From an uncultured Candidatus Saccharibacteria bacterium (GTDB taxonomy: Bacteria; Patescibacteriota; Minisyncoccia; Phycocordibacterales; UBA10002), in contig CAYJWA010000001.1 in the NCBI GenBank assembly GCA_964373775.1, positions 1 through 57,608 on the forward strand: a stretch of 57,608 bases of DNA. Direction: 5' to 3'. The position numbers and the translations under genes were made by a program. The notes under the pieces are model-generated. The model saw only the letters and a program-made list of their open reading frames with translations, ran no database searches and had not been told where the DNA came from. This document shows, piece by piece, positions 7,560 to 57,608 of this stretch (position 1 is its first letter; each line of letters begins with the position of its first letter).

Positions 7560-7602
7560 GTTTCATATATACGGGTATCATAGTAAGCTATACTATAAAA
7601 AT

Positions 7603-9384: not shown

Positions 9385-9425
9385 CTCGCAAACAACTTCT
9401 GGTGAGAGCGGTAGGTTTTAGATGT

Positions 9426-21028: not shown

Positions 21029-21062
21029 TTTCTTTCGAAAAACTCAAGTGGCAAACACCTTT

Positions 21063-32419: not shown

Positions 32420-33946
32420 ATGAAAGGATGTTTTTATCTGCAGCGTCAATTTGCCTATATTGGGCACACGATGATTTCCTTACTTAAGGAGCGTCATAAC
32501 ATAAACGACTTTTGCGGGTATGTGTTGCTTCGCTCAAGTTTTCAATTTCTGCGGAACCAAAAAGAAGTTTCTTATACTTCCTTGCTTCTTGAAGATGATA
32601 TTCTTGCGCAGTATAAAAATGAAAAAATAGATTATACCTACTTATCGTATCTTGAAAAAGAGTATGGCATCCCTAACCTATGGCCGTTTATCATTCCTGA
32701 CAGAGTGATTCGGTACAATCTTTATCTTCGCGCGTATCCTCATGATGTGTCAGTCTATACGCATGAAGATATGATAAAGATGTTGCAGGTCACCGCTCGC
32801 GCAATCATTGAATTCTTTGAAAAGGAAAATCCCGATTTCATTGTTTTTTCTGTCGTTGGAAATTTGAGCAGCATGCTTTTGTACCACATCGCAAAGAAGA
32901 AAGGCATAAGAACATTTATTATTGAAGGGCCAAGGATCGGTATAAGATATTTCTTCACTGAACGGTATGACCGTTCAACATTCCTTGAGCAGCGGCTCAA
33001 AGAGATGCAAAAGATCACTCCGTCGGAGAACAAGCCATGTTTTGCGGAGGCGCGGAAATTTTTGTCTGATTTCCAGAGCGCTCCGCGTTATTTCCTGCAA
33101 GGGGCAAGCATTGCAGAGGTTGTCACAACAAATTTTGATGTGCGACGACTCCGTTATTTCAAATTTTTGCTACCTCATAATCTCTTTCGTTCAATGCGAT
33201 GGACAGTTCATGCGGTTCTTCAGTATCTGTGCAATACGAACAAAGATGATTACATCATCATGAAGCCGTGGCACGAACTCATAGACAAAGTCACGAGAAA
33301 GGTGAGAATCCTCCGGGGTTATGGAGATCTCTATGATAAGCCTGTTTCCGGAGAAGATTTTGCCTATTTCGCGCTTCATACAGAGCCAGAGGCGTATCCG
33401 ATGGTTTTGGCGCCTTTTTATATTGACCAGCTCTGGCTCGCGAAGCAAATTGCACGCTCGCTTCCGCTATCGTACAAATTGTATGTGAAGGACCACCCAG
33501 TTATGATGGGTCTTCGGACTCGCGGATACTACAAGGAATTAAAAAAGATTCCAAATATCCGTTTGATTAACCCTGCGGTGTCCAGTTTGGAGCTGATTCA
33601 AAAAGGGAAACTCACTCTCACTATTACCGGAACGACAGGGTGGGAAGCGGCGCTGCTCAAAAAGCCAGTTATTATCTTTGGTAATATGTATTATGATACA
33701 CTGGCTGGAGTTAAAAAATGTCTTAATATTCAGGATTTGCCATTTCTCATAAAGCAGCAATTGGAATCATTTTTTTATGACGAAGAAGAACTTCTTGATT
33801 TGATTGCGTCTGCAATTGAGGAAAGTGTTGATGTTGACTTCATACAAATGTGGGATATTGAGGGAGGGGTAGAGTTTAAGAAAAATAGAGAACGGTTGAT
33901 ACCCTTTGTTGATTTGCTGGCAAAAAAGCTCTCAAATAAAAGATAA
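32420..33946 (+). CDS. capsule polysaccharide biosynthesis protein (KpsS/KpsC Capsule_synth-like)
   Basis: FALHTEPEAYPMVLAPFYIDQLWLAKQIARSLP...LYVKDHP and TITGTTGWEAALLKKPVIIFG resemble the capsule_synth family. Confidence 0.5.
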   Translation: MKGCFYLQRQFAYIGHTMISLLKERHNINDFCGYVLLRSSFQFLRNQKEVSYTSLLLEDDILAQYKNEKIDYTYLSYLEKEYGIPNLWPFIIPDRVIRYNLYLRAYPHDVSVYTHEDMIKMLQVTARAIIEFFEKENPDFIVFSVVGNLSSMLLYHIAKKKGIRTFIIEGPRIGIRYFFTERYDRSTFLEQRLKEMQKITPSENKPCFAEARKFLSDFQSAPRYFLQGASIAEVVTTNFDVRRLRYFKFLLPHNLFRSMRWTVHAVLQYLCNTNKDDYIIMKPWHELIDKVTRKVRILRGYGDLYDKPVSGEDFAYFALHTEPEAYPMVLAPFYIDQLWLAKQIARSLPLSYKLYVKDHPVMMGLRTRGYYKELKKIPNIRLINPAVSSLELIQKGKLTLTITGTTGWEAALLKKPVIIFGNMYYDTLAGVKKCLNIQDLPFLIKQQLESFFYDEEELLDLIASAIEESVDVDFIQMWDIEGGVEFKKNRERLIPFVDLLAKKLSNKR

Positions 33947-34901: not shown

Positions 34902-34908
34902 ATTGTGT

Positions 34909-35919: not shown

Positions 35920-36703
35920 ACTCGCTGCGGCAGGGGAAGGGGGAACCGCGCTTGATGTGGTAATCCTCTGCGGCGGGCAGGGGACGCGGCTTCGCCCGGT
36001 CATCTCCGACCGGCCGAAAGTGCTTGCGACGGTCGGAGGAAGGCCGTTTCTCTCGCTTTTACTGGAGCGGGTGCGGGCGCAGGGATTTGAGCGGATTATT
36101 CTCTGCATCGGATACAAGGGCGGCATGGTGCGGAAAGTCCTCAAAAGTGAAGTTCCTCCGCTTATATTTTCTGAAGAAAATGAGCCGCTCGGAACAGGCG
36201 GGGCGCTCAAAAAAGCCCTTCCATTAGTCCAGACCCCGGATTTTATCGTAATGAACGGCGACACATTCTGTCCCGTATCCCTTCACGAGCTGGTCAATTT
36301 CCACCGCGCGCGCCGCGCTTTGCTTTCTCTTGTGCTCAACCGCAGCGCGCGTTCTGACGGAGGCAGCATTATGCTTGATGCCGACCGAAGAATTACTCAT
36401 TTTAAGGAAAAAGAATCCATTGCCGGCACACCCCCGCGCCAATCTGGCGCAACGGATTTGCGTGGGGGTAAAGGTTGCTTAAGCGCTGGTGTCTATATGA
36501 TGAAAAAGGAGGTGGAGAGATTTATGCCAAAGAGACCAATGTTTTCTTTGGAATACGATTTTTTTCCTAAAATTATACGCTCCGTCCCCTGTTTCGGGTT
36601 TGTCACCAGTGAAGATGCTATTGATATCGGCACACCCGAACGGTATCATGAAGCTACGCGGCGTTTTAGAAAACGAATGCGTGGTGGCACAGGCAGGTTA
36701 TGA
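35900..36703 (+). CDS. hddC: D-glycero-alpha-D-manno-heptose 1-phosphate guanylyltransferase
   Basis: VVILCGGQGTRLRPVISDRPKVLATVGGRPFL. The start at the ATG at 35900 overlaps hddA by 20 nt. Confidence 0.7.
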   Translation: MDRPLHKLAAAGEGGTALDVVILCGGQGTRLRPVISDRPKVLATVGGRPFLSLLLERVRAQGFERIILCIGYKGGMVRKVLKSEVPPLIFSEENEPLGTGGALKKALPLVQTPDFIVMNGDTFCPVSLHELVNFHRARRALLSLVLNRSARSDGGSIMLDADRRITHFKEKESIAGTPPRQSGATDLRGGKGCLSAGVYMMKKEVERFMPKRPMFSLEYDFFPKIIRSVPCFGFVTSEDAIDIGTPERYHEATRRFRKRMRGGTGRL

Positions 36704-37269
36704 AAGAAGAAATAGTCGCACAACTGAAAGAAAGCGCGCGCGTGAAGCTTGCGGTCGCGGATTCGCTTGCCGATGTCATAGCGGGGGCGGCGAAGGCGAT
36801 TGCGGAGGCGTTTCGCGCGGGAGGAAAACTCTTGATTATAGGGAATGGCGGCAGCGCCGCGGACGCGCAACACATGGCCGCAGAATTGGTCAGCCGTTTT
36901 AAACTGGAAAGAAAAGCGCTTCCGGCGCTCGCGCTGACGACCGACACCTCAATTCTCTCTGCTATCGGCAATGACAGCGGTTTTGAGTTCGTCTTCTCCC
37001 GTCAGGTGGAAGCGCTCGCGAATCATCCATCGGATATTTTACTTGCGATCTCCACGAGCGGAAACTCTCGCAATGTGCTCAAGGCGGTGACGGCTGCGAA
37101 AAGGAGAAAACTTCAGACCGTTTGCCTCACCGGGCAGGGCGGCGCTCTTCGGACTATGGTTGATTTTGCCATTGCCGTGCCGTCAAAAGACACACAGCGC
37201 ATTCAGGAAGCGCACGGTACCATCGGCCACATCCTCTGTGGTCTTGTTGAGCAGGAGCTTTTCTCATAG
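36700..37269 (+). CDS. gmhA: sedoheptulose-7-phosphate isomerase
   Basis: LLIIGNGGSAADAQHMAAELVSRF, LLAISTSGNS and the QE.H motif. ATGA overlap with hddC. Confidence 0.85.
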   Translation: MKEEIVAQLKESARVKLAVADSLADVIAGAAKAIAEAFRAGGKLLIIGNGGSAADAQHMAAELVSRFKLERKALPALALTTDTSILSAIGNDSGFEFVFSRQVEALANHPSDILLAISTSGNSRNVLKAVTAAKRRKLQTVCLTGQGGALRTMVDFAIAVPSKDTQRIQEAHGTIGHILCGLVEQELFS

Positions 37270-42276: not shown

Positions 42277-43218
42277 ATGCCAGAACAATTTCCACAGCAG
42301 GGAACATCATCGGGTTCGGAAGAAAGGTTTAACTTGAAAAAACCGCTAAATTTACTCGAGCGGGATGGCGACCCGCGCAAAAGCGCGTACGTGAGAAAAC
42401 TTGTCAATGACGCGCGAGAGTATTGGCATACCTTCTCTGCTGGGAAAGGCGGGAGCATACGCCCTTCCATCTTCCGTCTCCATAAAGCCGAAGGGCTGTT
42501 TGAGAAAAAACCCGATGGCGGAAGAAAACATATGGCCCCTGAACACATCCTTACGGTGATGGCCGGCTGTTTTGCGTTGGCGCGTCTTTTGAAATTAAGC
42601 GAACAAGATACGCGCGACCTTTTGTTAGGAGCCGCGGTTCATGATGTGAACAAAGATATTGAGTTCCAACTTGTTCGGGAGTCAATCAAAAATCCGGAAG
42701 CGGGGTATGGCCAGCGGGGGTATGACACTGCGGGCAACATAAGCGCGCAGAAACTGAAATTCGCCGGAGTTCCGGCAAACATCATTCGCATTCATGGCGT
42801 GTGCGGACATGCGGCATGTCCGGACACAGAAACCGCGCTTCAAAAAGAAGAGCTGTCATCGGAAGATATCCAAAAACTTGTTCTCCATTACATTGACGAT
42901 ATTGTTACCAATCCGAACATTATTGACCCGGCCATTACGCATGATGAACAAGGAAAAAGGTTGAATGCGCTTGATAGGAGATGCATTCAAAACGAGAAAA
43001 ATCAATCCTATGTAGAGTATAACGAGGCATGGAAAAATGACCCTCGGAATAAAACTGGCGAAACGGCTTTTGTCATGCAGCGAAGAGTCGGTCATCTGGT
43101 AGAGAACAAGCTGGCGGAGCTTCTCGGTGTCAATGACCCAGTAACCTTACCGGAGGTTATATACAAACAGATGCAAAAAGATATTCAAGACCATTGGGAC
43201 AAGGGTAACAAAGGATAA
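42277..43218 (+). CDS. HD-domain-like protein (unknown function)
   Basis: HILTVMAGCFALARLL...LLLGAAVHDVNKD (H...HD spacing) and LVLHYIDD. Confidence 0.4.
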   Translation: MPEQFPQQGTSSGSEERFNLKKPLNLLERDGDPRKSAYVRKLVNDAREYWHTFSAGKGGSIRPSIFRLHKAEGLFEKKPDGGRKHMAPEHILTVMAGCFALARLLKLSEQDTRDLLLGAAVHDVNKDIEFQLVRESIKNPEAGYGQRGYDTAGNISAQKLKFAGVPANIIRIHGVCGHAACPDTETALQKEELSSEDIQKLVLHYIDDIVTNPNIIDPAITHDEQGKRLNALDRRCIQNEKNQSYVEYNEAWKNDPRNKTGETAFVMQRRVGHLVENKLAELLGVNDPVTLPEVIYKQMQKDIQDHWDKGNKG

Positions 43219-46313: not shown

Positions 46314-47075
46314 ATGAAGAATACCCGCATCATTCCCGCCGTTCATATCAAGGGCCCGAATGTGGTCAAGCCGGTGCATACCGAGGCATTGCGCGTGGTC
46401 GGCAATCCGAAAGAATTGGCGAGGCGGTATTACGAGGAGGGAGCCGATGAGCTCATCTATCTTGATATTGTCGCGAGTTTGTACCAGAGGAATCTGGATT
46501 TTGAGTTGCTTAAATCAGTTACCGATGGCATTTTTATTCCGGTAACGGTAGGCGGCGGCATCCGGAGCATTCACGACATCAATAACGCGCTGCGCGCCGG
46601 TGCGGACAAGGTCGCCATAAATACTCATGCCATCCAGCATCCGGAATTCATTTCCGAGGCCGCGAAGGAGTTTGGGTCCCAGTGCATTATTCTCTACATT
46701 GAGGCAAAGAGGCAGCCCGCGGGTCACTATGAATGCTATACTGACGGAGGCCGAGAGAAGTCAGGAGTAGATACCGTGGAGTGGGCGAGGCGCGGTATCG
46801 GCCTCGGAGCCGGCGAGATCCTTATTTCATCAATTGATCGGGACGGCACGCGGCGCGGGTATGATGTGGAACTCGTGCGGCAGATTACCGCGTTTGCGCC
46901 TGTTCCGGTTATCGCGCATGGCGGGGCCGGCAACTTTGAGTCCATAGAGCAGGTTATTAGGGAGGGGAAGGCAGACGCGGTTGCCGCATCTTCGGTATTT
47001 CATTATGAGGATTATTCGATTGGGGAGTTAAAGGAGTATTTGAGAAAGAAAAGAGTGAGTGTGAGAGAAAATTGA
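46314..47075 (+). CDS. HisF-like imidazole-glycerol-phosphate synthase cyclase subunit paralog (WbuZ/PseA-associated type)
   Basis: IIPAVHIKG, ADELIYLDI, VTVGGGIRS and VIAHGGAG. It lies in a glycan context next to the HisH-like protein and the amidotransferase. Confidence 0.75.
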   Translation: MKNTRIIPAVHIKGPNVVKPVHTEALRVVGNPKELARRYYEEGADELIYLDIVASLYQRNLDFELLKSVTDGIFIPVTVGGGIRSIHDINNALRAGADKVAINTHAIQHPEFISEAAKEFGSQCIILYIEAKRQPAGHYECYTDGGREKSGVDTVEWARRGIGLGAGEILISSIDRDGTRRGYDVELVRQITAFAPVPVIAHGGAGNFESIEQVIREGKADAVAASSVFHYEDYSIGELKEYLRKKRVSVREN

Positions 47076-47217
47076 CCTAATTATTCTAATTACTCTAAAC
47101 AAACCCCAAACACCAAGTCTGAATTTGGAATTAGGTATTAGACATTCCTTAGGTTAATTAGGTTAATTTCTTCACTATGAGTAATTAGACGAATTAGAAT
47201 AATTCGATTTCATTCTT
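47076..47217. repeat. AT-rich imperfect inverted-repeat intergenic element built from AATTAG/CTAATT words (copy E)
   Basis: cctaattattctaattactc (47076..47095) pairs with gagtaattagacgaattagaataattcg (47179..47206). Confidence 0.6.
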
Positions 47218-47856
47218 ATGAAATCCATCACTATCGTTGACTACGGCGTCGGCAATCTGCAGAGTTTAAAGAAGGCGTTTGCGCATGTTGGCGCGGACGC
47301 GCGGGTCTCTGAAGATGCGGAGGAGATACGAAATGCTCATGCGGTTGTTCTTCCCGGGGTCGGTTCTTTTGAGGCCGGCATGCGCGGACTCCGGCTCCGC
47401 GGGTTGATTGAAGCGGTAAAAGAGTTTGCGCGAAGCGGCAAGTCTCTCCTCGGCATCTGTCTTGGCGCCCAGTTGCTTCTTGACCGTGGGCATGAGTTCG
47501 GAGTGCATGAGGGGTTAGCCGTCATGGAGGGAGAAGTAGTTCGGTTCCCCCCTCTTTCCGGTAACGAGAAGATCCCGCAGGTGGGTTGGAATGCGGTACG
47601 GCAACCAGAGGGGGTATCCTGGAAGGGAACGATTTTTGATTCATTCGCGAATACAGAACCGGATGTGTACTTCGTGCATTCCTATATACTGAAACCGGAA
47701 AAGAACGAGCATATTCTCGGCGCGACTGTCTACGGCGGTTTCAAGTTTGCTTCTGCCATCCGACGGGGACGCATCTTCGGGACCCAGTTTCATCCGGAGA
47801 AAAGCGGCACGGCGGGATTGGAAATAATCAAGAATTTTGTTACGCTCGTTTCATGA
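47218..47856 (+). CDS. HisH-like glutamine amidotransferase subunit paralog (WbuY type)
   Basis: ITIVDYGVGNLQS, LPGVGSF, GICLGAQLL (catalytic Cys) and FHPEKS. Confidence 0.75.
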   Translation: MKSITIVDYGVGNLQSLKKAFAHVGADARVSEDAEEIRNAHAVVLPGVGSFEAGMRGLRLRGLIEAVKEFARSGKSLLGICLGAQLLLDRGHEFGVHEGLAVMEGEVVRFPPLSGNEKIPQVGWNAVRQPEGVSWKGTIFDSFANTEPDVYFVHSYILKPEKNEHILGATVYGGFKFASAIRRGRIFGTQFHPEKSGTAGLEIIKNFVTLVS

Positions 47857-49040
47857 AAGTAAAAAAATTAGACAAACAATTGGAGACACAACCGAAAAAA
47901 GTGCGATTTTGCGCGCGGTGCGTGGTCTCCAACCAACGGCCGCGCATCACCTTTGATGCGCATGGCGTCTGCAGCGCGTGCCGCTACACCTGGAAGAAAC
48001 ATCATGAAATTGACTGGAAGAAACGCGAGAGAGAATTGCAGGAACTCTGCAATCGACACCGTTCCACAGACGGCTCTTTCGATGTCGTGGTGCCCGCAAG
48101 CGGCGGTAAGGATAGCGGCTATACTGCTCATATCCTAAAAACAAAATACGGCATGCATCCGCTCTGCGTGACATGGGCGCCGTTTGAATACACGGACATT
48201 GGCTGGAAGAATTTTCAGAATTTCGTGAAGTCCGGATTTACGGTGCTCAATTGTTTTCCCAGCGGAGTACTGCATCGGAAATTGGCGCGCGTGGCGTTTG
48301 AGCTTAAGGGAGATGCCTGGGAGCCGTTTGCATTCGGGCAGAAGGCGTATGCGTTTCATATTGCGCTTACATTCGGCATCCCGCTCATCTTCTACGGAGA
48401 GAACGGAGAAGTGGAGTACGGCGGCTCTTTGAAAAATGCGGATAAGCCGTTTGAGTCGGTCGCGGACTGGGAGCATCTGTATTTTAAGGGTGCTGGCGTG
48501 GACGCGCTTCTTGGGGCGGGCCGTAAGCTGGGTATCTTTACCAAAGAGGAGATGCGAGATTCGTCATTTAATCTGTACCGCCCGCCGAAACTCCGCGACA
48601 TTGAAAAACTCGGTGCCGAGATGCACTGGCTCTCGTATTACCGCAAGTGGGTGCCGCAGGATAATTTTTATTACGCGCAGAAATACACCGGGTTTACCGC
48701 GAATGAAGAGGGTCGTTCAGAAGGCACCTACTCAAAATATGCAAGTTTGGACGACAAACAGGACGGATTTCATTTTTATCTCGCCTTCATCAAGTTCGGC
48801 ATCGGGCGGGCGACTTCTGACGCGGCGCATGAGATTCGCGATGGGCACATTACGCGGGAGGAGGGTGTGACGCTCGTGCGGCGCTACGATGGAGAATTCC
48901 CCAAAAAGCATTTTCAATGGTTTCTTGACTACCTCGGTATTGACGAAAAACATTTCTGGGAAGTCGTGGATTCATGGCGGCCGCCGCATGTGTGGAAAAA
49001 GGTGAACGGAGAGTGGAAAGTAAGAAAGCAGGTGGAATAG
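47853..49040 (+). CDS. N-acetyl-sugar amidotransferase (PP-loop ATPase, WbpG/WbuX/PseA-like)
   Basis: CARCVVSNQRPRITFDAHGVCSAC forms the zinc ribbon. VVVPASGGKDSGY is the SGGKDS PP-loop. ATGA overlap with the upstream gene. Confidence 0.75.
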   Translation: MKVKKLDKQLETQPKKVRFCARCVVSNQRPRITFDAHGVCSACRYTWKKHHEIDWKKRERELQELCNRHRSTDGSFDVVVPASGGKDSGYTAHILKTKYGMHPLCVTWAPFEYTDIGWKNFQNFVKSGFTVLNCFPSGVLHRKLARVAFELKGDAWEPFAFGQKAYAFHIALTFGIPLIFYGENGEVEYGGSLKNADKPFESVADWEHLYFKGAGVDALLGAGRKLGIFTKEEMRDSSFNLYRPPKLRDIEKLGAEMHWLSYYRKWVPQDNFYYAQKYTGFTANEEGRSEGTYSKYASLDDKQDGFHFYLAFIKFGIGRATSDAAHEIRDGHITREEGVTLVRRYDGEFPKKHFQWFLDYLGIDEKHFWEVVDSWRPPHVWKKVNGEWKVRKQVE

Positions 49041-49116
49041 TTTTTGAGTGAACGGTGAATGGGGTTGCGGTGAAGCGAACTTGATTTTTACCTTTTCGTT
49101 GCGTAGCATAGTTTCT

Positions 49117-50346
49117 ATGAGTAAGAATACTGACGATATAAAAAAGGTGGAAAGCGAGACGCTTGCAACCTTTCAGGAAGAGATTCCTTCGCAATACTTT
49201 TCGCATAAAAGCGAAGCAGAGTATCGGGATTATGTAAGGAACGCCGAGTTTGTTTATCGGGAGTTGTTCAAATTTCCTCCTCAGATGTTCCAAGGCGCGG
49301 AACTGATAGATTTCGGAGCGGGAACCGGAGAAAACACTGTGTACATGGCAAACTGGGGCGCTACATGCACGCTTGTGGAAATGAACTCCAAGGCACAGAG
49401 TATCTCAAAGGAAGTGTTTCAAAAATACGCGCAGAATCCTGACGGCCATACATTTATCTGTGCATCAATTTTTGACTATGCGCCGATCAATGACAAGAAA
49501 TATGACCTTGTTCACTGTAGGGGCGTTCTTTCACATACTGCAGCTAATGAAGTGGCTTTCCAAAAAATCGCGAACTTGGTTACACCGGGCGGGTATCTCA
49601 TTTTTGGAGACCCCAATAAGGCGGGGGGATTTCAGAATATGTTGCAGCGCTTTGCCGTCTATCATTTTGCTTCAACGCCCGATGAAATGGTGGCAGTGTG
49701 CGAACTTCTCTTTAAGGAAGACATTGACCGCAGCGAGAAATTTATTCCTCGCACCCGCCGCGCCATTATTTTTGACCGATGGGTGATTCAATCCCAAGAT
49801 GACCCTTCGGTTGCGGAAGTTATTGGTTGGATGGGTACGAGCGGCTTACGGCTGTATTCGTCATATCCCTCATTTATGCTGCCGTTAGTAAGTGATTCGG
49901 TTCATCATACGCCGAAGTTTGATTCAACATTGGTAGCTAACCACGGTGTGCTCGCTGAACTGGCGTGGATGTTACGGACCGAATCGGATAGCGAAGCGTT
50001 TCCTCAGTTAGTGAGCAAACTAGATCCGCTTTCGGCCGCCTTTGCAAATTTTACCTCATATGTAGCGAATCTAAATAAAAATACCAAGATTGATGCCGGC
50101 CGCTTCAAAGAATTATCGCGCGAGTTAGCACAATCTTCTGATTCGCTCAATTTTCTTCAGCTGCTTCGCGATAAATTGTTGCAGATTCTTATAGAAGCGG
50201 ACGAATTTGTCAGTTTGGTCCAGGAATCTGATTTGAAGAAACTTCGTAAGTTTATTGAAAACACTAAAGTTCTTTTTAAAAGCGCGTGCGGCGTACGCCA
50301 TGTTGACTTCATTGCTTATAAACCTATAGAAACCAATGCGAATTAA
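49117..50346 (+). CDS. class I SAM methyltransferase with a C-terminal extension of about 230 aa and unknown function
   Basis: LIDFGAGTGENTVYMA and YDLVHCRGVLSH. The ATG at 49117 is preferred over the GTG at 49048. Confidence 0.55.
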   Translation: MSKNTDDIKKVESETLATFQEEIPSQYFSHKSEAEYRDYVRNAEFVYRELFKFPPQMFQGAELIDFGAGTGENTVYMANWGATCTLVEMNSKAQSISKEVFQKYAQNPDGHTFICASIFDYAPINDKKYDLVHCRGVLSHTAANEVAFQKIANLVTPGGYLIFGDPNKAGGFQNMLQRFAVYHFASTPDEMVAVCELLFKEDIDRSEKFIPRTRRAIIFDRWVIQSQDDPSVAEVIGWMGTSGLRLYSSYPSFMLPLVSDSVHHTPKFDSTLVANHGVLAELAWMLRTESDSEAFPQLVSKLDPLSAAFANFTSYVANLNKNTKIDAGRFKELSRELAQSSDSLNFLQLLRDKLLQILIEADEFVSLVQESDLKKLRKFIENTKVLFKSACGVRHVDFIAYKPIETNAN

Positions 50347-51466
50347 TAGTCACAATGAATGGGATACATTGCGAGAAATTATTGTAGGCAGGGGAGACGG
50401 CCATGCTCATCTAGTTTTTCCGCATGGGCCGGTATCGGAAGAATTGCTTCATAGAGCGACTGCTTTGGCAAAAAAAGCTTTTCCGCAGTGGCTTATAGAT
50501 GAAATCAATGAAGATCTAGAAGGACTCTGCCATGTTTTAAAATCTTTCGGCGTTAAAGTGTATCGGCCGGATCTTTCTCACAACAATAAATTTTTTGCAA
50601 CCCCGTATTTTAGCGCCGTTGGCGACCATGTATATAACATGAGAGATTTACATTTGGTTGCTGGCAACACGGTAGTAGAGTCTCCTTCCCAGGAACAGCA
50701 TCGTTATTTTGAGGCGATGGGTCTGTATCCCATTTGGTATGAATATCTTAAAGAGGGTTTCCGCTGGATAGTTGGTCCAAAACCAAGAATTCCAGGAGAT
50801 CATATGATTGTATATACTGCTGACGGAAAGGATGGGTATGACGATGGGCAAAAGTATATCAAATTAAAAGAAGAAGAAATCTTATTTGAAGCAGCCAACA
50901 CGGTACGGTTAGGGAGAGACCTTTTGTATTTGGTGTCCAGATCCGGTAATTATCTTGGCGCGCAATGGCTGCAAACCGTTTTAGGCGATGAATACCGGGT
51001 TCATACCACTGATAAGATCTATCGTTCCAGCCACATTGATTCTACCGCTTTAGCCTTAAGACCAGGGGTGATTCTTTTGAATGGCACCCGGGTACATGAA
51101 AAGAATTGCCCGGAGATTTTGAAAAAGTGGGAAAAACTTTATTTTACCGATATTGTTCCCACTCCGGAAAGAACCCTAGATTTTCACGAAAAAGTCAGGA
51201 AGAAGGTGCATCAGAAACTTTTAGAAATGGGGGTAGACTCCGGTTTGGAATCGGTGGCTTCTCCATGGATTGGTATGAATGTGCTCTCAATTGATCCAAA
51301 AACGATTGTGGTGGATAAGATTCAAATTCCACTCATCAAATTCTTTGAGAAAAAAGGTTTTACCGCTGTGCCTATTAGTTTTAGACATTCTTATTACATG
51401 GGTGGAATCCATTGCAGCACCTTAGACACGGTTCGGGATAGCACATTAGAAAGTTATTGCGATTAA
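50336..51466 (+). CDS. amidinotransferase (glycine amidinotransferase / StrB1-like, GME superfamily)
   Basis: The N-terminal INSHNEWDTLREIIVG resembles the NEWDPL.EVIVG signature. The C-terminal GGIHCSTLD carries the catalytic Cys. Confidence 0.65.
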   Translation: MRINSHNEWDTLREIIVGRGDGHAHLVFPHGPVSEELLHRATALAKKAFPQWLIDEINEDLEGLCHVLKSFGVKVYRPDLSHNNKFFATPYFSAVGDHVYNMRDLHLVAGNTVVESPSQEQHRYFEAMGLYPIWYEYLKEGFRWIVGPKPRIPGDHMIVYTADGKDGYDDGQKYIKLKEEEILFEAANTVRLGRDLLYLVSRSGNYLGAQWLQTVLGDEYRVHTTDKIYRSSHIDSTALALRPGVILLNGTRVHEKNCPEILKKWEKLYFTDIVPTPERTLDFHEKVRKKVHQKLLEMGVDSGLESVASPWIGMNVLSIDPKTIVVDKIQIPLIKFFEKKGFTAVPISFRHSYYMGGIHCSTLDTVRDSTLESYCD

Positions 51467-51468
51467 AA

Positions 51469-52602
51469 ATGAATAAAGTTTTAGCAGTGATCCACGCGCG
51501 TAGCGGTTCAAAACGGATACCGAACAAGAACATTCGGGATTTTTGCGGCAAGCCCCTGATTGCGTATACGATTGAACAGGCGTTACGGTGCGCGTTTGTT
51601 GAGCGAGTGATTGTAGATACGGATTCGCCGGCTATTGCCGCTGTCGCAAAAAAGCATGGCGCAGAAGTTCCGTTTCTGCGCCCAAAACAGCTTGCCGCCG
51701 ACACCTCGCAGGTTGCAGATGTGCTCTTCTGCCTTCTCTCGCGGCTGAAAGAGGAAGAAGGGTATGAACCGACGCATGTGCTCATTTTGCAGACGACATC
51801 GCCGCTTCGCGAACAAAGAGATATAGACGCCTGCTTCGCGCTTATGGAACAGACCGATGCGACCACCGTGCTTACGGTGGCGCCGACGCATCCGAGGTTA
51901 TATCATCTCGACGCGGAAAAGAACCTCGTGCTCGGAAACAAGTTTGTTGTGGACTCCACCAATGTACAGGAATGGAAACCGGCCTACCTCCTCAACGGGT
52001 GTTTCGTGTATCTGGTCAAGACCGAGGCGCTGCTGCGCGAAAAGCGCATCATCACGAAACGCACCAAAGCGGTCATTTGCGACAAATGGCGCTCAGTTGA
52101 TTTGGATTCGCCGGAGGACTGGGTCGTGGCGGAGCTTTTGTATACGCATAGGGAGGAAATAAAAAAGAGTTTGGGACGCATTAAGAAACAGAAACAGACA
52201 GTACCGTCTGCTTCGTCCCCGTATAAAGATTTCGACGGATGGAATGAAGTGAAGAAGCACACGCATGCAGAACCGCCGCGTCTATATACCGTGCGCGAGA
52301 TTTGGTGGTGCCGGCTGGGCGAAAATGTCGGAACCGAACAGAACGGAACAGGGGATGTATTTGCTCGACCTTGCATTATTCTCCGCCCGTTCGGTCCAGG
52401 GGCCTGTCTTGTAGTGCCCCTTACTACCTCTCCGCGGGAGCACCCATTGCGTGTTCCTGTTGGGCTAGTTAACGGAAAGCAGGCTCGCGCGAATCTCTCC
52501 CAGATGAGAGTCGTTGATACACGGCGATTCACCCTTAAAATCGGTTTCCTTTCCCGGAATGCGTTTGATAAACTGAAAAAAGCCGCCGGAGATTTATTCT
52601 GA
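51469..52602 (+). CDS. neuA: CMP-nonulosonic acid synthetase (NeuA) fused to a C-terminal MazF/PemK-like domain
   Basis: Residues 1 to about 225 (LAVIHARSGSKRIPNKN, LQTTSPLR) match a cytidylyltransferase. Residues from about 258 to the end (EIWWCRLGENVGTEQNGTGDVFARPCIILRPF..CLVVPLTTS...ANLSQMRVVDTRR) align by eye with E. coli MazF. The reading frame is uninterrupted. Confidence 0.7.
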   Translation: MNKVLAVIHARSGSKRIPNKNIRDFCGKPLIAYTIEQALRCAFVERVIVDTDSPAIAAVAKKHGAEVPFLRPKQLAADTSQVADVLFCLLSRLKEEEGYEPTHVLILQTTSPLREQRDIDACFALMEQTDATTVLTVAPTHPRLYHLDAEKNLVLGNKFVVDSTNVQEWKPAYLLNGCFVYLVKTEALLREKRIITKRTKAVICDKWRSVDLDSPEDWVVAELLYTHREEIKKSLGRIKKQKQTVPSASSPYKDFDGWNEVKKHTHAEPPRLYTVREIWWCRLGENVGTEQNGTGDVFARPCIILRPFGPGACLVVPLTTSPREHPLRVPVGLVNGKQARANLSQMRVVDTRRFTLKIGFLSRNAFDKLKKAAGDLF

Positions 52603-52710
52603 CGACTCTTTTGCACTTTTTCCCCTCCGTAGGAGGGGCGAGGCCGAAGCCAACTGTGTTTCGATGCTAGCATATATCTTTAAGAAAAGCAAGCAAACTA
52701 ATGTAACCCT

Positions 52711-53682
52711 ATGAAGTTCCTCATTGCTGGACTCGGTTCAATGGGCAAGCGGAGAATCCGTAATCTGTTCGCCAATGGCGAGAAAAACATTGTGGGTTTT
52801 GACATTCGTCAAGACAGAAACAAAGAGGTACAGCAGAAATACGGCATTCACATTCTGAATCGTCTCGGAGAGATTTCACCGAAGGATTTTGACGCGCTTA
52901 TCATTTCCACTTCGCCCGACGCGCACGGTAATTATATCCGCTATGCCCTGAAGCATAAGAAGCACTTTTTTGTGGAGCATCCGACAAGCGACGATGGATA
53001 CAAAGAAATTCTCAAGAACAAAGACGCAACCGTTAAAGCTCCCTCCTGCACATTTTTATTCAATCCAGCCGTCAAGCTCATGAAAAAGATTTTGGGAGAA
53101 GGAAAGATAGGGAAGGTGCTGGCGTTCCAGTATCACATGGGGCAATATCTTCCGGACTGGCATCCGTGGGAGGACTACCGTACGGTATATTTCTCAAAGA
53201 AAGAAACAGGCGCTTGCCGCGAGATGTTCTGCTTTGAACTTATCTGGCTGAATTATCTTATGGGTTCGCGCGTGAGAGAAGTCAAGGGTTCAATCACCAA
53301 ACTCTCTGCTCTTGATATGGATGCCGACGATACGATTACGGCTGCGGTTGCGTATGAGAACAGCGTGCGCGGCACGCTTCTTATTGATGTCATTGCGCGA
53401 AAGCCGTTCCGCACGCTCCGCGTTCTCGGCTCCGAGGGCGTGCTTGAGTGGGAGCGATTTGACTACGCGATAAAGATATTCAACGCCGCGACCAAAGAAA
53501 CCGAAGTTATCCCCGTGCCGAAGGGGAATCCGGAAAAAGGGTATGTCAACGAGGAGGAGATGTACATTGAGGAAATCAAGGCATTTTTGGATGCTATCTA
53601 CGGTCGCTCGCCTTACCCATACTCGTTTGAGGAGAACCTCCTGAATCTGCGGGTTTTTGAGCGGGTTGAACGGGAGAGTTGA
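52711..53682 (+). CDS. Gfo/Idh/MocA-family oxidoreductase
   Basis: MKFLIAGLGSMGKRRIRN and HFFVEHP. Confidence 0.65.
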   Translation: MKFLIAGLGSMGKRRIRNLFANGEKNIVGFDIRQDRNKEVQQKYGIHILNRLGEISPKDFDALIISTSPDAHGNYIRYALKHKKHFFVEHPTSDDGYKEILKNKDATVKAPSCTFLFNPAVKLMKKILGEGKIGKVLAFQYHMGQYLPDWHPWEDYRTVYFSKKETGACREMFCFELIWLNYLMGSRVREVKGSITKLSALDMDADDTITAAVAYENSVRGTLLIDVIARKPFRTLRVLGSEGVLEWERFDYAIKIFNAATKETEVIPVPKGNPEKGYVNEEEMYIEEIKAFLDAIYGRSPYPYSFEENLLNLRVFERVERES

Positions 53683-53740
53683 AGGGGCGGGTAACTTTAC
53701 GCAGGCGGTCTTTGCGTCTGTTTCTTCTCCGTTTTTACAT

Positions 53741-54670
53741 TCATTTTCTTATTTCCTTGATTAAATACGCCTGGTCCAACCGAGGGAACTCAAGTTTGGA
53801 GAGTATCGCCTTGTCCATGGTCGCTCTAAAACCTATCTCTACGCCAATGTCTGTAAGAATTCGTAGCGTGCTCCGGCTGTATGAATTGTCAGGGTGAGCC
53901 GCAGTTATGATGTTTTTATGGAGCAGACCAGTGAGCATCGAGAGGTTTTTCTCGTATTCTTTTCGTTGTTCTTCGTCGGGCAGTCTTTTTAGGTTAGTGG
54001 GGTGCGTATGACTATGCAATCCGATGATATGTCCGAGATTTGAAAGCTCTATGATACGCTCCGGGTTGATCCAGAGCAGTGCAAGCAATCTTTTCGGTTC
54101 GAGTCCGGAGCCTCTAATCATGCGGTTCATGATATGTTCATATTCAGCCCGGTTTAGTATGATATCCCGCACATATCTGAACTTTTTATCCTCCGGCGTA
54201 TAGATGTGGTACGGCGTAAATATTTTTCTGTGGTCAAAATTTCGGAGTCCCCGTGCCACTTTTTCTCGGAGAGGTGACTTTGCGACGCTCTCATCGAAGG
54301 CAGCATAAAAGTCATTTATTCGCTTAAATTTCTTAAACCGGTAATATCGATAGATCTCGAGTTTGGGAGGACTTTTTTGGAAGACCCCGCTGCAAATGAA
54401 CCAAAATGCTTTGAGATTGTGTTTCCGGAGAACCGGCAGGGCAATATCGAATTGGCATCGGAGCGCATCGTCGAATGTTATGCAGACATCCCGTCCGGTA
54501 AGCGTGTTGCCGCGCGCCTTTTCAAGCCATTTTTCTGCTGAAAGTATGTTGAATCTTTTTTTGTAGAACGATAACATGCGGTCAAATTCATTGGCCGTTA
54601 TCGATCCTTGGCTCGGAATATATTTTTTATTGTCGTGAAAATAATGGAACATCAATCCGTGAGGGACCAT
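53741..54670 (-). CDS. polysaccharide deacetylase (NodB-like)
   Basis: ITFDDALRCQ and IGLHSHTHP. The ATG at 54670 (MVPHGLMFHYFHD) is preferred over the TTG at 54739. Confidence 0.55.
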   Translation of the reverse strand: MVPHGLMFHYFHDNKKYIPSQGSITANEFDRMLSFYKKRFNILSAEKWLEKARGNTLTGRDVCITFDDALRCQFDIALPVLRKHNLKAFWFICSGVFQKSPPKLEIYRYYRFKKFKRINDFYAAFDESVAKSPLREKVARGLRNFDHRKIFTPYHIYTPEDKKFRYVRDIILNRAEYEHIMNRMIRGSGLEPKRLLALLWINPERIIELSNLGHIIGLHSHTHPTNLKRLPDEEQRKEYEKNLSMLTGLLHKNIITAAHPDNSYSRSTLRILTDIGVEIGFRATMDKAILSKLEFPRLDQAYLIKEIRK

Positions 54671-54799
54671 AGCGTCTTTTTTTAGGAATAAGTGCCACTT
54701 TGCGGTTCGTAGCCGTATACCGTTACTATTTAAGCTCAACTTTAGTTATACTAGCATACAGTCGTGGAAAACGGATGCGGGCGGTAATGTCACCATACT

Positions 54800-55858
54800 A
54801 TGGCGAAACAAATCTTCATAGGGGGGAAAAAGATTGGCGCCTGCCAGCCGGTGTTTATCATCGCGGAGGCCGGAGTGAATCACAATGGAAAATTGTCGCT
54901 TGCGAGAAAACTCATTGACGCGGCGGCGGACACGGGTGCGGACGCCGTGAAGTTTCAGACATTTTCTCCTGACGAGTTGGTGACGAAGAGCGCGGCAAGA
55001 GCAGCGTATCAGACGAAGAACGAAAAGAGAAAAACCGAATCCCAGTATGCGATGCTGAAGCGCCTTGCGTTGCCGCGCGAGTGGCACGCGGAATTGAAAC
55101 GATATGTTGAAAAGAGGGGATTGGTATTTTTATCCACGCCATTTTCTTTTGCCGATGCGGAGTTTCTTCGGAAGCTCGGCGTTGAAGCCATTAAGGTGAG
55201 TTCCGGCGATGCCAACAACTATCCGTATCTTCGCCGCATCGCGGCGTGGGGGTTGCCGATTCTGCTTTCTACTGGCATGGCGGATATGAAGGAAGTGCGC
55301 GAGGCAGTCCGAACAGTAGAGAAGGCCGGAAACAAAAAATTAATTCTTTTGCAGTGCACCACGAATTACCCAACGCCGTTTCGAGAAGTGAATCTACGGG
55401 CCATAACGACTCTGCAAAAAGAATTCGCCGTGCCCGTGGGTTTTTCCGACCACACCGTTGGGAGCGAAGCCGCAATCGCGGCAGTGGCGCTCGGCGCGTG
55501 CGTTATTGAAAAACATTTCACTCTGGATAGAAATCTTCCCGGACCCGACCACAAGGCATCACTTGAACCCGATGAGCTTAAAGATTTTGTGAAGAAGATA
55601 CGGAATATCGAGTCCGCGCTCGGCACCGGGGAAAAGATTCCATTTGCCAGCGAGCGGGAAACCGCGAAGGTTGCAAGAAAGAGTTTGGTTACACTTAAAC
55701 GAGTCAAAAAGGGAGAACGGTTCACGACGGAAAACTTCACCGTCAAGCGTCCCGGGACAGGTCTTCCGCCAAAGAACTATGATAATGTTATTGGAACCCG
55801 TGCGGCGCATAACATTTCCGCGGACACTCTTTTAGCCGAGCATGACTATACCGCGTAA
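54800..55858 (+). CDS. neuB: nonulosonic acid synthase (N-acetylneuraminate/legionaminate synthase family)
   Basis: FIIAEAGVNHNG, ADAVKFQTF, GFSDHT and a C-terminal SAF-like domain (FTVKRPGTGL). Confidence 0.8.
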   Translation: MAKQIFIGGKKIGACQPVFIIAEAGVNHNGKLSLARKLIDAAADTGADAVKFQTFSPDELVTKSAARAAYQTKNEKRKTESQYAMLKRLALPREWHAELKRYVEKRGLVFLSTPFSFADAEFLRKLGVEAIKVSSGDANNYPYLRRIAAWGLPILLSTGMADMKEVREAVRTVEKAGNKKLILLQCTTNYPTPFREVNLRAITTLQKEFAVPVGFSDHTVGSEAAIAAVALGACVIEKHFTLDRNLPGPDHKASLEPDELKDFVKKIRNIESALGTGEKIPFASERETAKVARKSLVTLKRVKKGERFTTENFTVKRPGTGLPPKNYDNVIGTRAAHNISADTLLAEHDYTA

Positions 55859-56996
55859 AAAAATAGCATACATCTCTGGAACCCGCGCCGACTTCGGACT
55901 TATGACCCCGGTACTGTTGGCTATTGAAAAAAGCAAAAAACTTTCGCTTCAAGTGTACGCGACCGGGATGCACCTCATGCCGGAGTTCGGGAGCACCATT
56001 CAAGAGGTCAGGAAGTTGTTTCGGAGGACGAAAATAATTGATGCGCGATTTGACACCGACGACCGTCGCGGCATGGCGGAATTTATTGGGGTGTTCCTTC
56101 CGAAAGCGGTTGCTGCATTCAAGAAAGACCGCCCCGACCTCGTGCTTTTGCTCGGAGATCGCCCCGAGATGCTGACAACGGCGCTTGCATGTTTGTACCT
56201 TGGTATCCCAACGGGGCATCTGCACGGGGGAGAGAGGACGGCGACGGTTGATGAAGTCGCTCGACATGCTATCACGAAGCTCGTTTCTCTTCATTTTCCG
56301 GCGACGAAAGAGTCCGCAGAGCGGCTCAAAAAAATGGGGGAGGAGGCATGGCGGATTCATGCGGTCGGCGCACCGACCTTGGATACGATTACGCAGGGGA
56401 GGATTCTTTCCCGCCACGCGGTAGCGAAGTTTTTGAAGATTGAGGAGAATGAGAGTTTTATTTTAGTGGTGCAGCACCCGGTAAGCGAAGAGTGGAGAGA
56501 TGCGGGTCGGCAGATGAGAGAAACGCTTCACGCGACAAAAAGTTTCGGTATGCCGGTCGTGGTTCTGTATCCTCACGCCGATGCGGGCGGACGCCGTATG
56601 ATTACGGAGATTGAAAAAGAACGCGGCAATCCGTTGTTCCGGATTTTTTCCAGCGTGTCCTATAAGATGTTTCTTGCGTTGGAGCGGGACGCGGCGGTGT
56701 GGGTTGGGAACTCAAGCGCCATGTGCATTGAATCCGCTTCCTTTCAGACGCCGTGCGTGAATGTGGGAGAGAGGCAGAGCGGGAGGATGCGCGGAAAGAA
56801 TGTGCTTGATGTCGGGTACCGCCGAGACGAGATACGGGCGGCAATAGAGAAATCGCTCCACGACAAGTCATATCTAGCGCGGGTGCGGCGCGTAAAGAAC
56901 CTGTGGGGAGATGGGAAGACCGCAAAGCGGGTCGTTCGCATGCTGGAACACCTTCCTTCCCGCGAGAAACTGACAGCGAAACAGATTGCGTATTAA
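55842..56996 (+). CDS. neuC: hydrolysing UDP-N-acetylhexosamine 2-epimerase
   Basis: KIAYISGTRADFGLM, VLLLGDRPEML and HLHGGERT. It overlaps neuB by 17 nt. Confidence 0.75.
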   Translation: MTIPRKKIAYISGTRADFGLMTPVLLAIEKSKKLSLQVYATGMHLMPEFGSTIQEVRKLFRRTKIIDARFDTDDRRGMAEFIGVFLPKAVAAFKKDRPDLVLLLGDRPEMLTTALACLYLGIPTGHLHGGERTATVDEVARHAITKLVSLHFPATKESAERLKKMGEEAWRIHAVGAPTLDTITQGRILSRHAVAKFLKIEENESFILVVQHPVSEEWRDAGRQMRETLHATKSFGMPVVVLYPHADAGGRRMITEIEKERGNPLFRIFSSVSYKMFLALERDAAVWVGNSSAMCIESASFQTPCVNVGERQSGRMRGKNVLDVGYRRDEIRAAIEKSLHDKSYLARVRRVKNLWGDGKTAKRVVRMLEHLPSREKLTAKQIAY

Positions 56997-57021
56997 GTAA
57001 GTTGTAATACTGTCCCTTACT

Positions 57022-57423
57022 ATGGTAGAAAAGCGCTTCACACAATGGAAAAAACCAGATATACAGCATGGTAGACCAACCAAGTGGAATTGGTTGGTGT
57101 TGTATCCTAAGGCACTTTCTTTGGGTCTGCATACAGATATCGGCGCATACACGCTCATTATGGCAAAGTATGGTGTGGAGATTGAAGATGAGGTACAGAT
57201 TGGTTCTCATTGCTCCATCTATTCCTATTCCACGATTGATGACAAAGCGGGGAAGGTTGTGCTAAAGAAAAATTGTCGCATCGGCACGCACAGTTCTATC
57301 ATGCCGGGGATTACGGTGGGGGAGAACGCGATTGTCGGCGCGCACAGTTTTGTCACCAAAAATGTGCCGGCGAACACGACGGTCGCCGGCGTGCCGGCAA
57401 AACCCTTAAAGAAATTCACCTAA
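57022..57423 (+). CDS. hexapeptide-repeat (LbH) acetyltransferase
   Basis: VQIGSHCSI, CRIGTHSSIMPGITVGENAIVGAHSFV and VAGVPAKP. Confidence 0.7.
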   Translation: MVEKRFTQWKKPDIQHGRPTKWNWLVLYPKALSLGLHTDIGAYTLIMAKYGVEIEDEVQIGSHCSIYSYSTIDDKAGKVVLKKNCRIGTHSSIMPGITVGENAIVGAHSFVTKNVPANTTVAGVPAKPLKKFT

Positions 57424-57608
57424 TTGTCTAATTTCTAATTCACCTAATAAAAGGTCAAAGGCCTAATTCTAGAATCATTTGGCATTTTGTTTATTTGAGA
57501 TTTTATTAGAAATTAGGTGAATTAGAAATTAGAAATTTCTCATGCGCTATTCCAGAATCATTTGGCATTTTGTTTATTTGAGATTTTATTAGAAATTAGG
57601 TGAATTAG
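57424..57608. repeat. AT-rich inverted-repeat element (copy F) with a 59-nt tandem duplication reaching the window edge
   Basis: The arms at 57428..57452 and 57501..57532 are complementary. The 59-mers at 57467..57525 and 57550..57608 match at 58/59 with an 83-nt period. Confidence 0.75.

Follow-up and report, generated by a model that had tools for sequence, protein, structure and literature searches.

Nonulosonic acids are found on flagella, pili, S-layers, capsules and lipopolysaccharide, where their N-substituents determine the surface charge, recognition by phages and lectins, and visibility to the immune system. To our knowledge, the only familiar guanidino example of this sugar class is the synthetic drug zanamivir. 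Here, we examined an amidinotransferase gene (50336..51466; gene and protein are both called AT) that lies in a nonulosonic-acid cluster of an uncultured Candidatus Saccharibacteria bacterium, together with the methyltransferase gene next to it (49117..50346; MT). The stretch analysed, hereafter the window, comprises 57,608 nucleotides (GenBank assembly GCA_964373775.1, contig CAYJWA010000001.1, positions 1 to 57,608). Judged from its sequence and that of its relatives, AT belongs to a distinct clade of amidinotransferases and is probably active, with L-arginine as the donor and a legionaminic-acid-type nonulosonic acid as the sugar that it decorates.

The closest described enzyme is StrB1, the L-arginine:inosamine-phosphate amidinotransferase of streptomycin biosynthesis (1bwd), which gave both the best sequence match (8e-66) and the best fold match (Foldseek 1.4e-31, TM 0.77–0.83) to AT. 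The two proteins share the nucleophile Cys, the His and the arginine-binding Asp, Asp, Arg and Ser, and StrB1 amidinates an amine on a sugar-like ring, as is predicted for AT. However, AT is ~34–40% identical to StrB1, which falls outside the clade; where StrB1 has the triad Asp the clade has a Glu, together with extra segments that include a helix at residues ~278–297; and StrB1-like genes are never found beside deacetylase or neu genes, unlike those of the clade. In creatine synthesis, the amidinotransferase AGAT is followed by GAMT, an S-adenosylmethionine (SAM)-dependent methyltransferase. Similarly, AT and MT overlap by 11 nt, and a methyltransferase of one of two types is found in at least 28 of 41 AT loci. 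Unlike in the AGAT and GAMT pair, MT is not a GAMT homologue and the predicted acceptor is a nine-carbon sugar instead of glycine.

Two further systems act on nonulosonates themselves. Pairs of a CE4 deacetylase and a formyltransferase, known from Candidatus Kuenenia and from two of the loci compared here (L088 and L089), involve the same deacetylase family as the AT clade (41–46% identity) at the same position of a legionaminic-acid (Leg) cluster, with the partner immediately downstream. Their partner is a formyltransferase and their product a formamido group or a free amine, whereas the product predicted for AT is a guanidino group. In Campylobacter and Legionella, WbuX/PtmG forms an acetamidino group and PtmH accounts for N-methylation (Leg5Am7Ac, Leg5AmNMe7Ac), and the window has WbuX, HisH and HisF homologues at 46314-49040. 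Both the PtmG-type route and the predicted AT route convert a neutral N-acetyl group of a nonulosonate into a cationic group, with a methyltransferase nearby. The chemistry differs: WbuX/PtmG amidates the acetyl carbonyl, whereas the AT route would swap the acyl group for an arginine-derived amidino group. Moreover, the 409-aa MT tracks AT and not WbuX. The component families (amidinotransferase, CE4 deacetylase, class I methyltransferase and WbuXYZ) are already known; new here are the AT clade, its fixed link to a nonulosonate deacetylase and a methyltransferase, its alternation with formyltransferases, and the predicted product.

When AT was compared with PDB sequences by phmmer, it retrieved StrB1 (1bwd, 8.2e-66), SxtG (6u1r, 1.8e-50), AGAT (1jdw, 1.5e-46) and HsvA (5wpi, 1e-43), with alignments spanning residues 3–376 in two stretches. 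Beyond these four amidinotransferases the next matches had E > 0.1, and they included no other member of the guanidino-modifying superfamily. With the AlphaFold2 model of AT (pLDDT 82.2, pTM 0.85), the seven top Foldseek matches were all amidinotransferase chains, again of these four enzymes (E 1e-31 to 1e-27, TMq 0.73–0.77); dimethylarginine dimethylaminohydrolase (DDAH) and arginine deiminase (ADI) ranked far lower (~1e-10, TMq 0.5–0.6). These rankings bear out the StrB1-family membership proposed in an initial annotation of this DNA, made from its letters without database searches; a grouping with ADI or DDAH, which that annotation had named as the contrary outcome, is not what we found. 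Pfam gave nothing at threshold, the sole weak match being PF02274, the ADI model (12.9 bits against a cut-off of 22.8), and NCBIfam gave no match at E ≤ 0.01. The family assignment therefore came from the PDB sequence and fold searches, and it is because no Pfam or NCBIfam model reaches threshold that public records label the relatives of AT 'hypothetical protein'.

The two motifs quoted by the initial annotation, NEWDTLREIIVG (residues 7–18) and GGIHCST (residues 356–362), are both present in AT. Aligning StrB1 with AT placed D108, H227, D229, R246, S280 and C332 of the former on D104, H233, D235, R252, S309 and C360 of the latter, so that all six are conserved, with C360 lying within GGIHCST and H233 within SSHIDST. 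The six residues are invariant in 23 diverse homologues and kept in at least 118 of the 120 top homologues (H233 in all 120, C360 in the 118 that cover the position, the remaining two being gapped there). In AGAT, the arginine carboxylate is held by the residues to which R252 and S309 correspond; the arginine-binding set, D170, D305, R322 and S355 in AGAT, is D104, D235, R252 and S309 in AT. A Cys-His-Asp triad had been anticipated for AT: the Cys and the His are conserved as expected, and the Asp (D179 in 'FDAAN' of StrB1, D254 of AGAT) is Glu185 ('FEAAN') in AT, with Glu at this position in 120/120 close homologues. Glu is likewise found at the triad position in 44 of 46 clade copies, compared with Asp in 41 of 41 StrB1-like copies, and the residue signature reads DEHDSC in 43/46 clade copies and DDHDSC in 37/41 outsiders.

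Both its sequence matches and its modelled fold put AT in the arginine-type amidinotransferase lineage, nearer to the transferases than to the hydrolases. By alignment, nothing is missing from its machinery for donor binding and covalent catalysis, and the one substitution, found throughout the clade, is conservative. The triads of ADI and DDAH have a Glu at this position too, and the only weak Pfam match is to the ADI model, as would be the case if the change from Asp to Glu had turned the clade into a deiminase-like hydrolase or a non-catalytic protein. We regard this as very improbable, since in sequence and fold AT is at least 18 orders of magnitude nearer to transferases than to ADI and DDAH, since the Cys, the His and all arginine-binding residues are strictly conserved, and since Glu is also found in other branches of the amidinotransferase family. 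It should be noted that Glu185 was rejected as a marker of the clade alone: some 50%-identity representatives outside the clade also have Glu, and one at 47% identity has Asp.

Compared with StrB1, SxtG and AGAT, the clade has extra segments, at residues ~276–303 and ~150–178 of AT. One of them contains a confidently modelled helix (residues 278–297), at the place where the two aligned stretches leave a gap, and the acceptor site may owe its shape to these segments.

To define the clade, one genome per GTDB species was scanned, which gave 80 loci. They divide cleanly into 39 at ≥47% identity to AT and 41 at ≤40%, the latter being StrB1-like and coming from Streptomyces, cyanobacteria and others. 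The 39 loci and the window form a monophyletic group in a neighbour-joining tree, with a minimum identity of 0.49 within the group and a maximum of 0.46 to outsiders. The clade spans more than 15 microbial phyla. Its carriers, according to record titles, are Parcubacteria of the Candidate Phyla Radiation (CPR; Harrisonbacteria, Giovannonibacteria, Yanofskybacteria, Paceibacterota), Binatia, Rokuibacteriota, Pirellulales, Planctomycetales, Dehalococcoidia, SAR202, Omnitrophota, Acidobacteriota, Gemmatimonadota, Latescibacterota, Lentisphaerae, Leptospiraceae, Gammaproteobacteria, Magnetovibrio, Pelagibacterales (SAR11), Prochlorococcus, Actinomycetota and the DPANN archaeon GW2011_AR10. The closest relatives of AT, at 85–87% identity, are CPR bacteria. 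Every clade carrier in the genome scan is a metagenome-assembled genome (MAG) or a single-cell genome, and none is cultured.

We then compared gene neighbourhoods in 41 loci (the window, the 39 loci of the clade and L005, a long metagenomic chromosome) by calling open reading frames (ORFs) and grouping them by all-against-all BLASTP. The most constant neighbour is a CE4 deacetylase, found in 39/41 loci and within 300 bp of AT in 33, often overlapping it. Genes for nonulosonate synthesis follow: within 10 kb, NeuA is found in 29 loci, NeuB in 26 and NeuC in 25, while a DegT aminotransferase is present in 18. The 409-aa methyltransferase occurs in 21 loci and adjoins AT in 17; in 7 others an alternative methyltransferase of 242 aa adjoins AT. 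None of NeuA, NeuB, NeuC or the deacetylase was found near the 41 StrB1-like genes. For NeuB within 10 kb, the count is 24 of the 39 clade genes in genomes against 0 of 41 StrB1-like genes (Fisher p = 1.5e-10, for loci that are not phylogenetically independent). The association of AT with nonulosonate genes is far beyond chance, and the co-occurrence with neuB and neuA that the initial annotation had suggested looking for extends over many phyla instead of being absent from homologous clusters.

This association also bears on whether AT might make a free small guanidino metabolite, such as guanidinoacetate, homoarginine or, as HsvA does, an amidinated polyamine, its position in the cluster being incidental. 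All characterised relatives act on small soluble amines, and in locus L030 the clade gene stands beside arginine-cycle genes with no sugar genes nearby. Nevertheless, with a deacetylase in 39/41 loci and NeuA, NeuB and NeuC in most, as against none at the StrB1-like genes, such a role seems highly improbable.

The typical arrangement is a complete legionaminic-type cluster in which a trio of deacetylase, AT and MT is embedded. In L005, for example, the order is MT-GFO-NeuA-SDR-x-NeuB-NeuC-PglD-Deac-AT-CBS/NTP-transferase-dehydratase-aminotransferase. Three loci reached independently through MT (L170, L171 and the P0469 contig) read NeuA-MT-AT-Deac, so that MT-AT-Deac was the order in 3/3 contexts checked in this way, and the P0469 contig, like the window, has WbuX, HisH and HisF as well, following on from these genes. 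MT is part of a conserved MT-AT-deacetylase module. The acetamidino triad, whose adjacency to AT had originally been presented as the notable feature of this locus, is not conserved: WbuX, HisH and HisF are present in 4/41 loci, the window being one of these few, and in one further AT locus, the P0469 contig. As a general functional partner of AT the triad was rejected for this reason.

MT itself matched the Methyltransf_23/11/31 models at residues 72–202 of the 432-aa ORF that starts at GTG 49048, i.e., about residues 49–179 in the 409-aa numbering; the class I SAM methyltransferase part is placed at residues ~50–190. In the PDB and NCBIfam it matched class I enzymes of a generic kind, among them UbiG and the sarcosine/dimethylglycine methyltransferases, and its AlphaFold2 model (pLDDT 82.8) likewise retrieved only generic class I methyltransferases by Foldseek. 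The homologues of MT are 58–82% identical and 400–413 aa long. A C-terminal domain of unknown function had been attributed to MT, and indeed its last ~220 residues had no Pfam, NCBIfam or PDB sequence match, while Foldseek matched the N-terminal Rossmann half only.

Many other sugar pathways share the 57-kb glycan island that makes up the window, and in L016, L025 and L031 the module stands without neuA, neuB or neuC within 10 kb. We therefore considered whether the module might modify a different N-acetylated amino sugar within the same glycan, for instance a hexosamine or a derivative of a uronic acid, and merely travel with neu genes in such islands. We find this quite unlikely. The module is mostly embedded among core nonulosonate genes, as in L005, where it lies between neuD and the CBS-nucleotidyltransferase gene; it directly follows the CMP-synthetase gene in L170 and L171; and the association holds over more than 15 phyla although the rest of the islands differs.

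The conserved partner of the AT clade is represented in the window by a CE4 deacetylase on the minus strand (53741-54670), which the initial annotation had missed. It carries the metal-binding and catalytic motifs TFDD (T65–D68) and H219-S-H-T-H223, which are invariant in 24 homologues, and neither its translation nor that of AT has an N-terminal hydrophobic signal. In Leg-type clusters of Leptospira santarosai (L088) and Gimesia aquarii (L089), a member of the same deacetylase family is followed by an overlapping Formyl_trans_N protein of ~265 aa, which resembles sugar N-formyltransferases such as the dTDP-4-amino-4,6-dideoxyglucose formyltransferase. Using a deacetylase alignment, we fetched 80 metagenomic loci: a formyltransferase adjoins the deacetylase in 41 of 79 scorable cases and AT in 7 of 79. 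Taking the whole loci (n = 80), 50 have the formyltransferase only, 8 have AT only and none has both. No formyltransferase was found in the window. This alternation beside one deacetylase family gives AT the place of an enzyme by which an amino group of the nonulosonate pathway is decorated anew. In Candidatus Kuenenia, CMP-nonulosonates with a free amine and with a formylated amine have been detected, and they were attributed to the deacetylase and the formyltransferase of its Leg cluster, acting at the nucleotide-sugar level (preprint 10.64898/2026.04.20.719630).

L088 and L089 come from cultured organisms and are tractable for the 'deacetylate, then re-cap' logic; their deacetylase-formyltransferase arrangement is the commonest in the 80 metagenomic loci.

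Moreover, of the 18 loci in which the aminotransferase is seen, 10 keep a LegH/PglD-type acetyltransferase, as do L170 and L171. Both amines would thus be acetylated to begin with, and it is for this reason that a deacetylase would be needed. The other 8 of these 18 loci have no LegH-type acetyltransferase within 10 kb, and this would suit an earlier action of AT, on the 4-amino group of an NDP-4-amino-4,6-dideoxy-hexosamine, where it would replace or compete with LegH while the deacetylase separately left a free or methylated amine. That the formyltransferases paired with the deacetylase family resemble the dTDP-4-amino-4,6-dideoxyglucose enzyme points the same way, as does the Kuenenia product with one formyl group and one free amine, which fits two enzymes on two nitrogens. 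Such an early action appears unlikely, however, given that LegH/PglD-type genes are retained in the other ten loci and in L170 and L171, that the adjacency of AT and deacetylase (33/41, often with overlapping frames) is most simply read as consecutive steps, and that a guanidino substrate would then have to be tolerated by the 2-epimerase and the synthase that act downstream.

In the window, the genes of 46314-57423 are all on the plus strand, with the deacetylase as the one exception. The following features were recognised, the last of them in a distal part of the same island:

46314..47075, plus strand, HisF-like/WbuZ-like cyclase subunit of the acetamidino-forming system (His_biosynth PF00977, E 1.7e-65)
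47218..47856, plus strand, HisH-like glutaminase subunit, a class-I glutamine amidotransferase (PF00117, 1.9e-20; TIGR01855, 200 bits)
47853..49040, plus strand, WbuX-type PP-loop N-acetyl sugar amidotransferase (TIGR03573, 1.5e-101, 340.3 bits against a cut-off of 203.2)
49117..50346 (alternative GTG start 49048), plus strand, 409-aa SAM methyltransferase with a helical C-terminal half, MT (Methyltransf_23/11/31)
50336..51466, plus strand, amidinotransferase of 376 aa with Cys360-His233-Glu185, AT (phmmer against PDB; Foldseek)
51469..52602, plus strand, CMP-nonulosonate synthetase (NeuA/PseF-like) with an in-frame C-terminal PemK/MazF-like domain (PF02348, 3e-27, residues 10–204)
52711..53682, plus strand, GFO/IDH/MocA oxidoreductase (PF22725 and PF01408), of a family found in 15/41 AT loci
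53741..54670, minus strand, CE4 (NodB-type) N-deacetylase (PF01522, 5.1e-16, 59.2 bits against a cut-off of 23.1)
54800..55858, plus strand, nonulosonate synthase of NeuB/LegI type (PF03102, 1.5e-101; TIGR03569, 464 bits against a cut-off of 399.65)
55842..56996, plus strand, hydrolysing NDP-sugar 2-epimerase of NeuC/LegG type (TIGR03568, 365 bits, over its cut-off)
57022..57423, plus strand, short hexapeptide acetyltransferase of NeuD/PglD type (PF00132, 4.9e-15; TIGR03570, 71 bits, under its cut-off)
32420..33946, plus strand, candidate nonulosonate transferase (PF05159 Capsule_synth, 3.3e-10)

The five genes of 46314-51466 named in the initial annotation (HisF-like, HisH-like, PP-loop, MT and amidinotransferase) lie where it had placed them, according to translations and profile searches. 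Its overlapping stops and starts hold for MT and AT (11 nt) and for HisH and WbuX (4 nt) but not for NeuA, whose start (ATG 51469, as used by gene callers) falls 2 nt past the AT stop. The HisF-like protein scored just over the cut-off of the hisF model TIGR00735 (296.9 bits, cut-off 294.55) and under that of the WbuZ model TIGR03572 (271 bits, cut-off 299.7). The HisH-like protein matched the generic HisH model and has the GICLG nucleophile and FHPE motifs in its translation, while the WbuX-type protein has the PP-loop motif SGGKDS.

A NeuB/LegI synthase, a NeuC/LegG 2-epimerase and a CMP-synthetase are thus all present in the window. The top PDB matches are SpsE (1vli, 1.6e-67) for NeuB and the GDP/UDP-N,N'-diacetylbacillosamine 2-epimerase (5zlr, 2e-52) for NeuC; the synthetase scored 166.7 bits with the PseF model TIGR03584, under its cut-off. 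Aminotransferase and dehydratase genes stand next to neuD or inside the same cluster in the closest relatives (L010, L012, L015 and L018), and relatives whose NeuC is 61–63% identical carry the aminotransferase. From these homologies, a Leg-type backbone is likely in the window.

We propose the following pathway, in which the acceptor, the nitrogen modified, the order of steps and the target of MT are those that we infer from gene content and order. The neu/leg genes would build a di-N-acetylated nine-carbon sugar, from which the cytoplasmic CE4 deacetylase (53741-54670) would strip one N-acetyl group, probably while the sugar is free or CMP-bound. AT would load the amidino group of arginine onto Cys360, with release of ornithine, and pass it to the freed amine to give a guanidino substituent. 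The 409-aa MT may then methylate the product, formally as GAMT acts after AGAT in creatine synthesis. In the window and a minority of genomes, WbuX/HisH/HisF would turn the other N-acetyl group into an acetamidino group, leaving two cationic groups against one carboxylate, and NeuA would activate the sugar for transfer. It is reasonable to predict from this gene context, with both modules in the window, a doubly cationic nonulosonate (acetamidino plus guanidino, possibly N-methylated).

Several points weigh against this proposal. The triad Asp of the family is a Glu in the clade, a conservative change to the residue that ADI and DDAH use. The deacetylase and the formyltransferase of Kuenenia may act on different nitrogens, so that occupying the same slot is no proof that AT uses the amine freed by the deacetylase. 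In the closest relatives (L008–L011) the deacetylase lies directly downstream of AT, whereas in the window NeuA follows AT; here the deacetylase stands 2.3 kb from AT on the other strand and belongs, in a neighbour-joining tree, to a formyltransferase-linked branch, and their pairing in the window is therefore inferred from other genomes. Moreover, no 4,6-dehydratase or aminotransferase for a 5,7-diamino backbone was found beside the neu genes of the window, which ends in a repeat at 57608; its only DegT gene (17109-18272, minus strand) lies among dTDP-sugar genes. Finally, neuA, neuB and neuC are all missing within 10 kb from at least five clade loci whose 10-kb flanks are complete on both sides (L016, L025, L030, L031 and L033), and from further loci that are cut.

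The window deacetylase was also considered as the orthologue of the AT-adjacent deacetylase of L008–L011, and this was rejected, the identity being 38–40% although the ATs are 85–87% identical. The window seems to have replaced its cognate deacetylase with a paralogue, by displacement within the module.

Beyond this locus, we consider it about an even chance that guanidino-substituted, often N-methylated legionaminic-type nonulosonic acids form a widespread, undetected class of surface sugars, made by a portable deacetylase-AT-MT cassette in CPR, DPANN, SAR11, Prochlorococcus, Planctomycetes, Acidobacteria and others. If so, the guanidino substituent would be a new natural chemistry for nonulosonic acids, and would make the acidic sugar a zwitterion or, together with an acetamidino group as in the window, net cationic. 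The cassette is found in very abundant marine microbes (SAR11, Prochlorococcus), and in the ultra-small, contact-dependent CPR and DPANN it could play a part in attachment to hosts and in defence against phages. A predicted function would also be given to a family that is labelled 'hypothetical protein' or mislabelled as glycine amidinotransferase or DDAH, and 'deacetylate, then re-cap', with formyl and amidino as alternatives, would be a general logic by which nonulosonates diversify.

Full-text literature searches returned no paper that combines an amidinotransferase with nonulosonic, legionaminic or pseudaminic acid, and among the matches for guanidin* with nonulosonic, as far as their accessible text goes, none dealt with natural guanidino-substituted nonulosonic acids. 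A Campylobacter phage paper and the matches on SAR11 had no bearing on the subject. According to computed masses, replacing an acetyl (C2H2O) by an amidino (CH2N2) group shifts the mass by only +0.0112 Da (334.1488 against 334.1376, i.e., 34 ppm). The composition space of the SugarBase survey extends to four nitrogens, which would exclude the form with both acetamidino and guanidino groups (N5). Guanidino sugars could have escaped notice because of this small mass shift and because the clade has neither cultured carriers in the genome scan nor a curated family model.

Two loci of the clade have particular surroundings. In L030 (9968-12254; an Acidobacteriota MAG), an ornithine carbamoyltransferase gene follows the clade AT, with no deacetylase or neu genes nearby. 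It fits ornithine as the by-product of arginine-dependent amidino transfer, which it would recycle. In L025 (6344-12319; a Terriglobia chromosome), an MT-deacetylase-AT cassette lies between an insertion sequence (IS) transposase (rve integrase) and a gene of the DHDPS/NanA family, a layout which suggests that the cassette moves as a unit.

In the window, the NeuA and PemK/MazF-like domains (PF02452, 1.9e-12, at residues 280–377) have no stop between them and no obvious internal ATG. The extension is absent from 31/31 NeuA homologues in related loci, which are about 225–350 aa long, mostly ~240. Three origins are conceivable: a genuine fusion, the capture of a toxin gene between neuA and the GFO gene, or an error of the assembly. 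Past the end of neuD there are 185 nt without an ORF, which hold only repeats: a 60-nt direct repeat (57466-57525 / 57549-57608; 98% identical, with an 83-nt period) that reaches the window end, and a 27-nt inverted repeat at 57422-57448 and 57512-57538. The 60-nt repeat is probably the reason why the sequence stops at 57608, hiding the rest of the nonulosonate pathway.

The whole 57.6-kb window is a glycan-biosynthesis island. The candidate transferase at 32420..33946 weakly matched NF046086 (the NCBI model named 'BFO_1060 family glycosyltransferase') and is 48% identical over 506 residues to a gene that adjoins the deacetylase in L008. Neither Pfam nor NCBIfam matched a 313-aa protein (42277-43218) flanked by two SDR epimerase/dehydratase genes, and other large ORFs without matches are 28757-30496 (579 aa), 21048-22751 (567 aa) and 7438-9384 (648 aa). 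The island also holds two NDP-sugar C-methyltransferases with zinc-binding N-termini (9402-10640 and 23688-24875), dTDP-sugar genes with the DegT aminotransferase on the minus strand (17109-20140), GmhA-like SIS, GHMP kinase and nucleotidyltransferase genes (34798-37269) and, in 1-46300, several GT2 and GT4 glycosyltransferases and FkbM-type methyltransferases.

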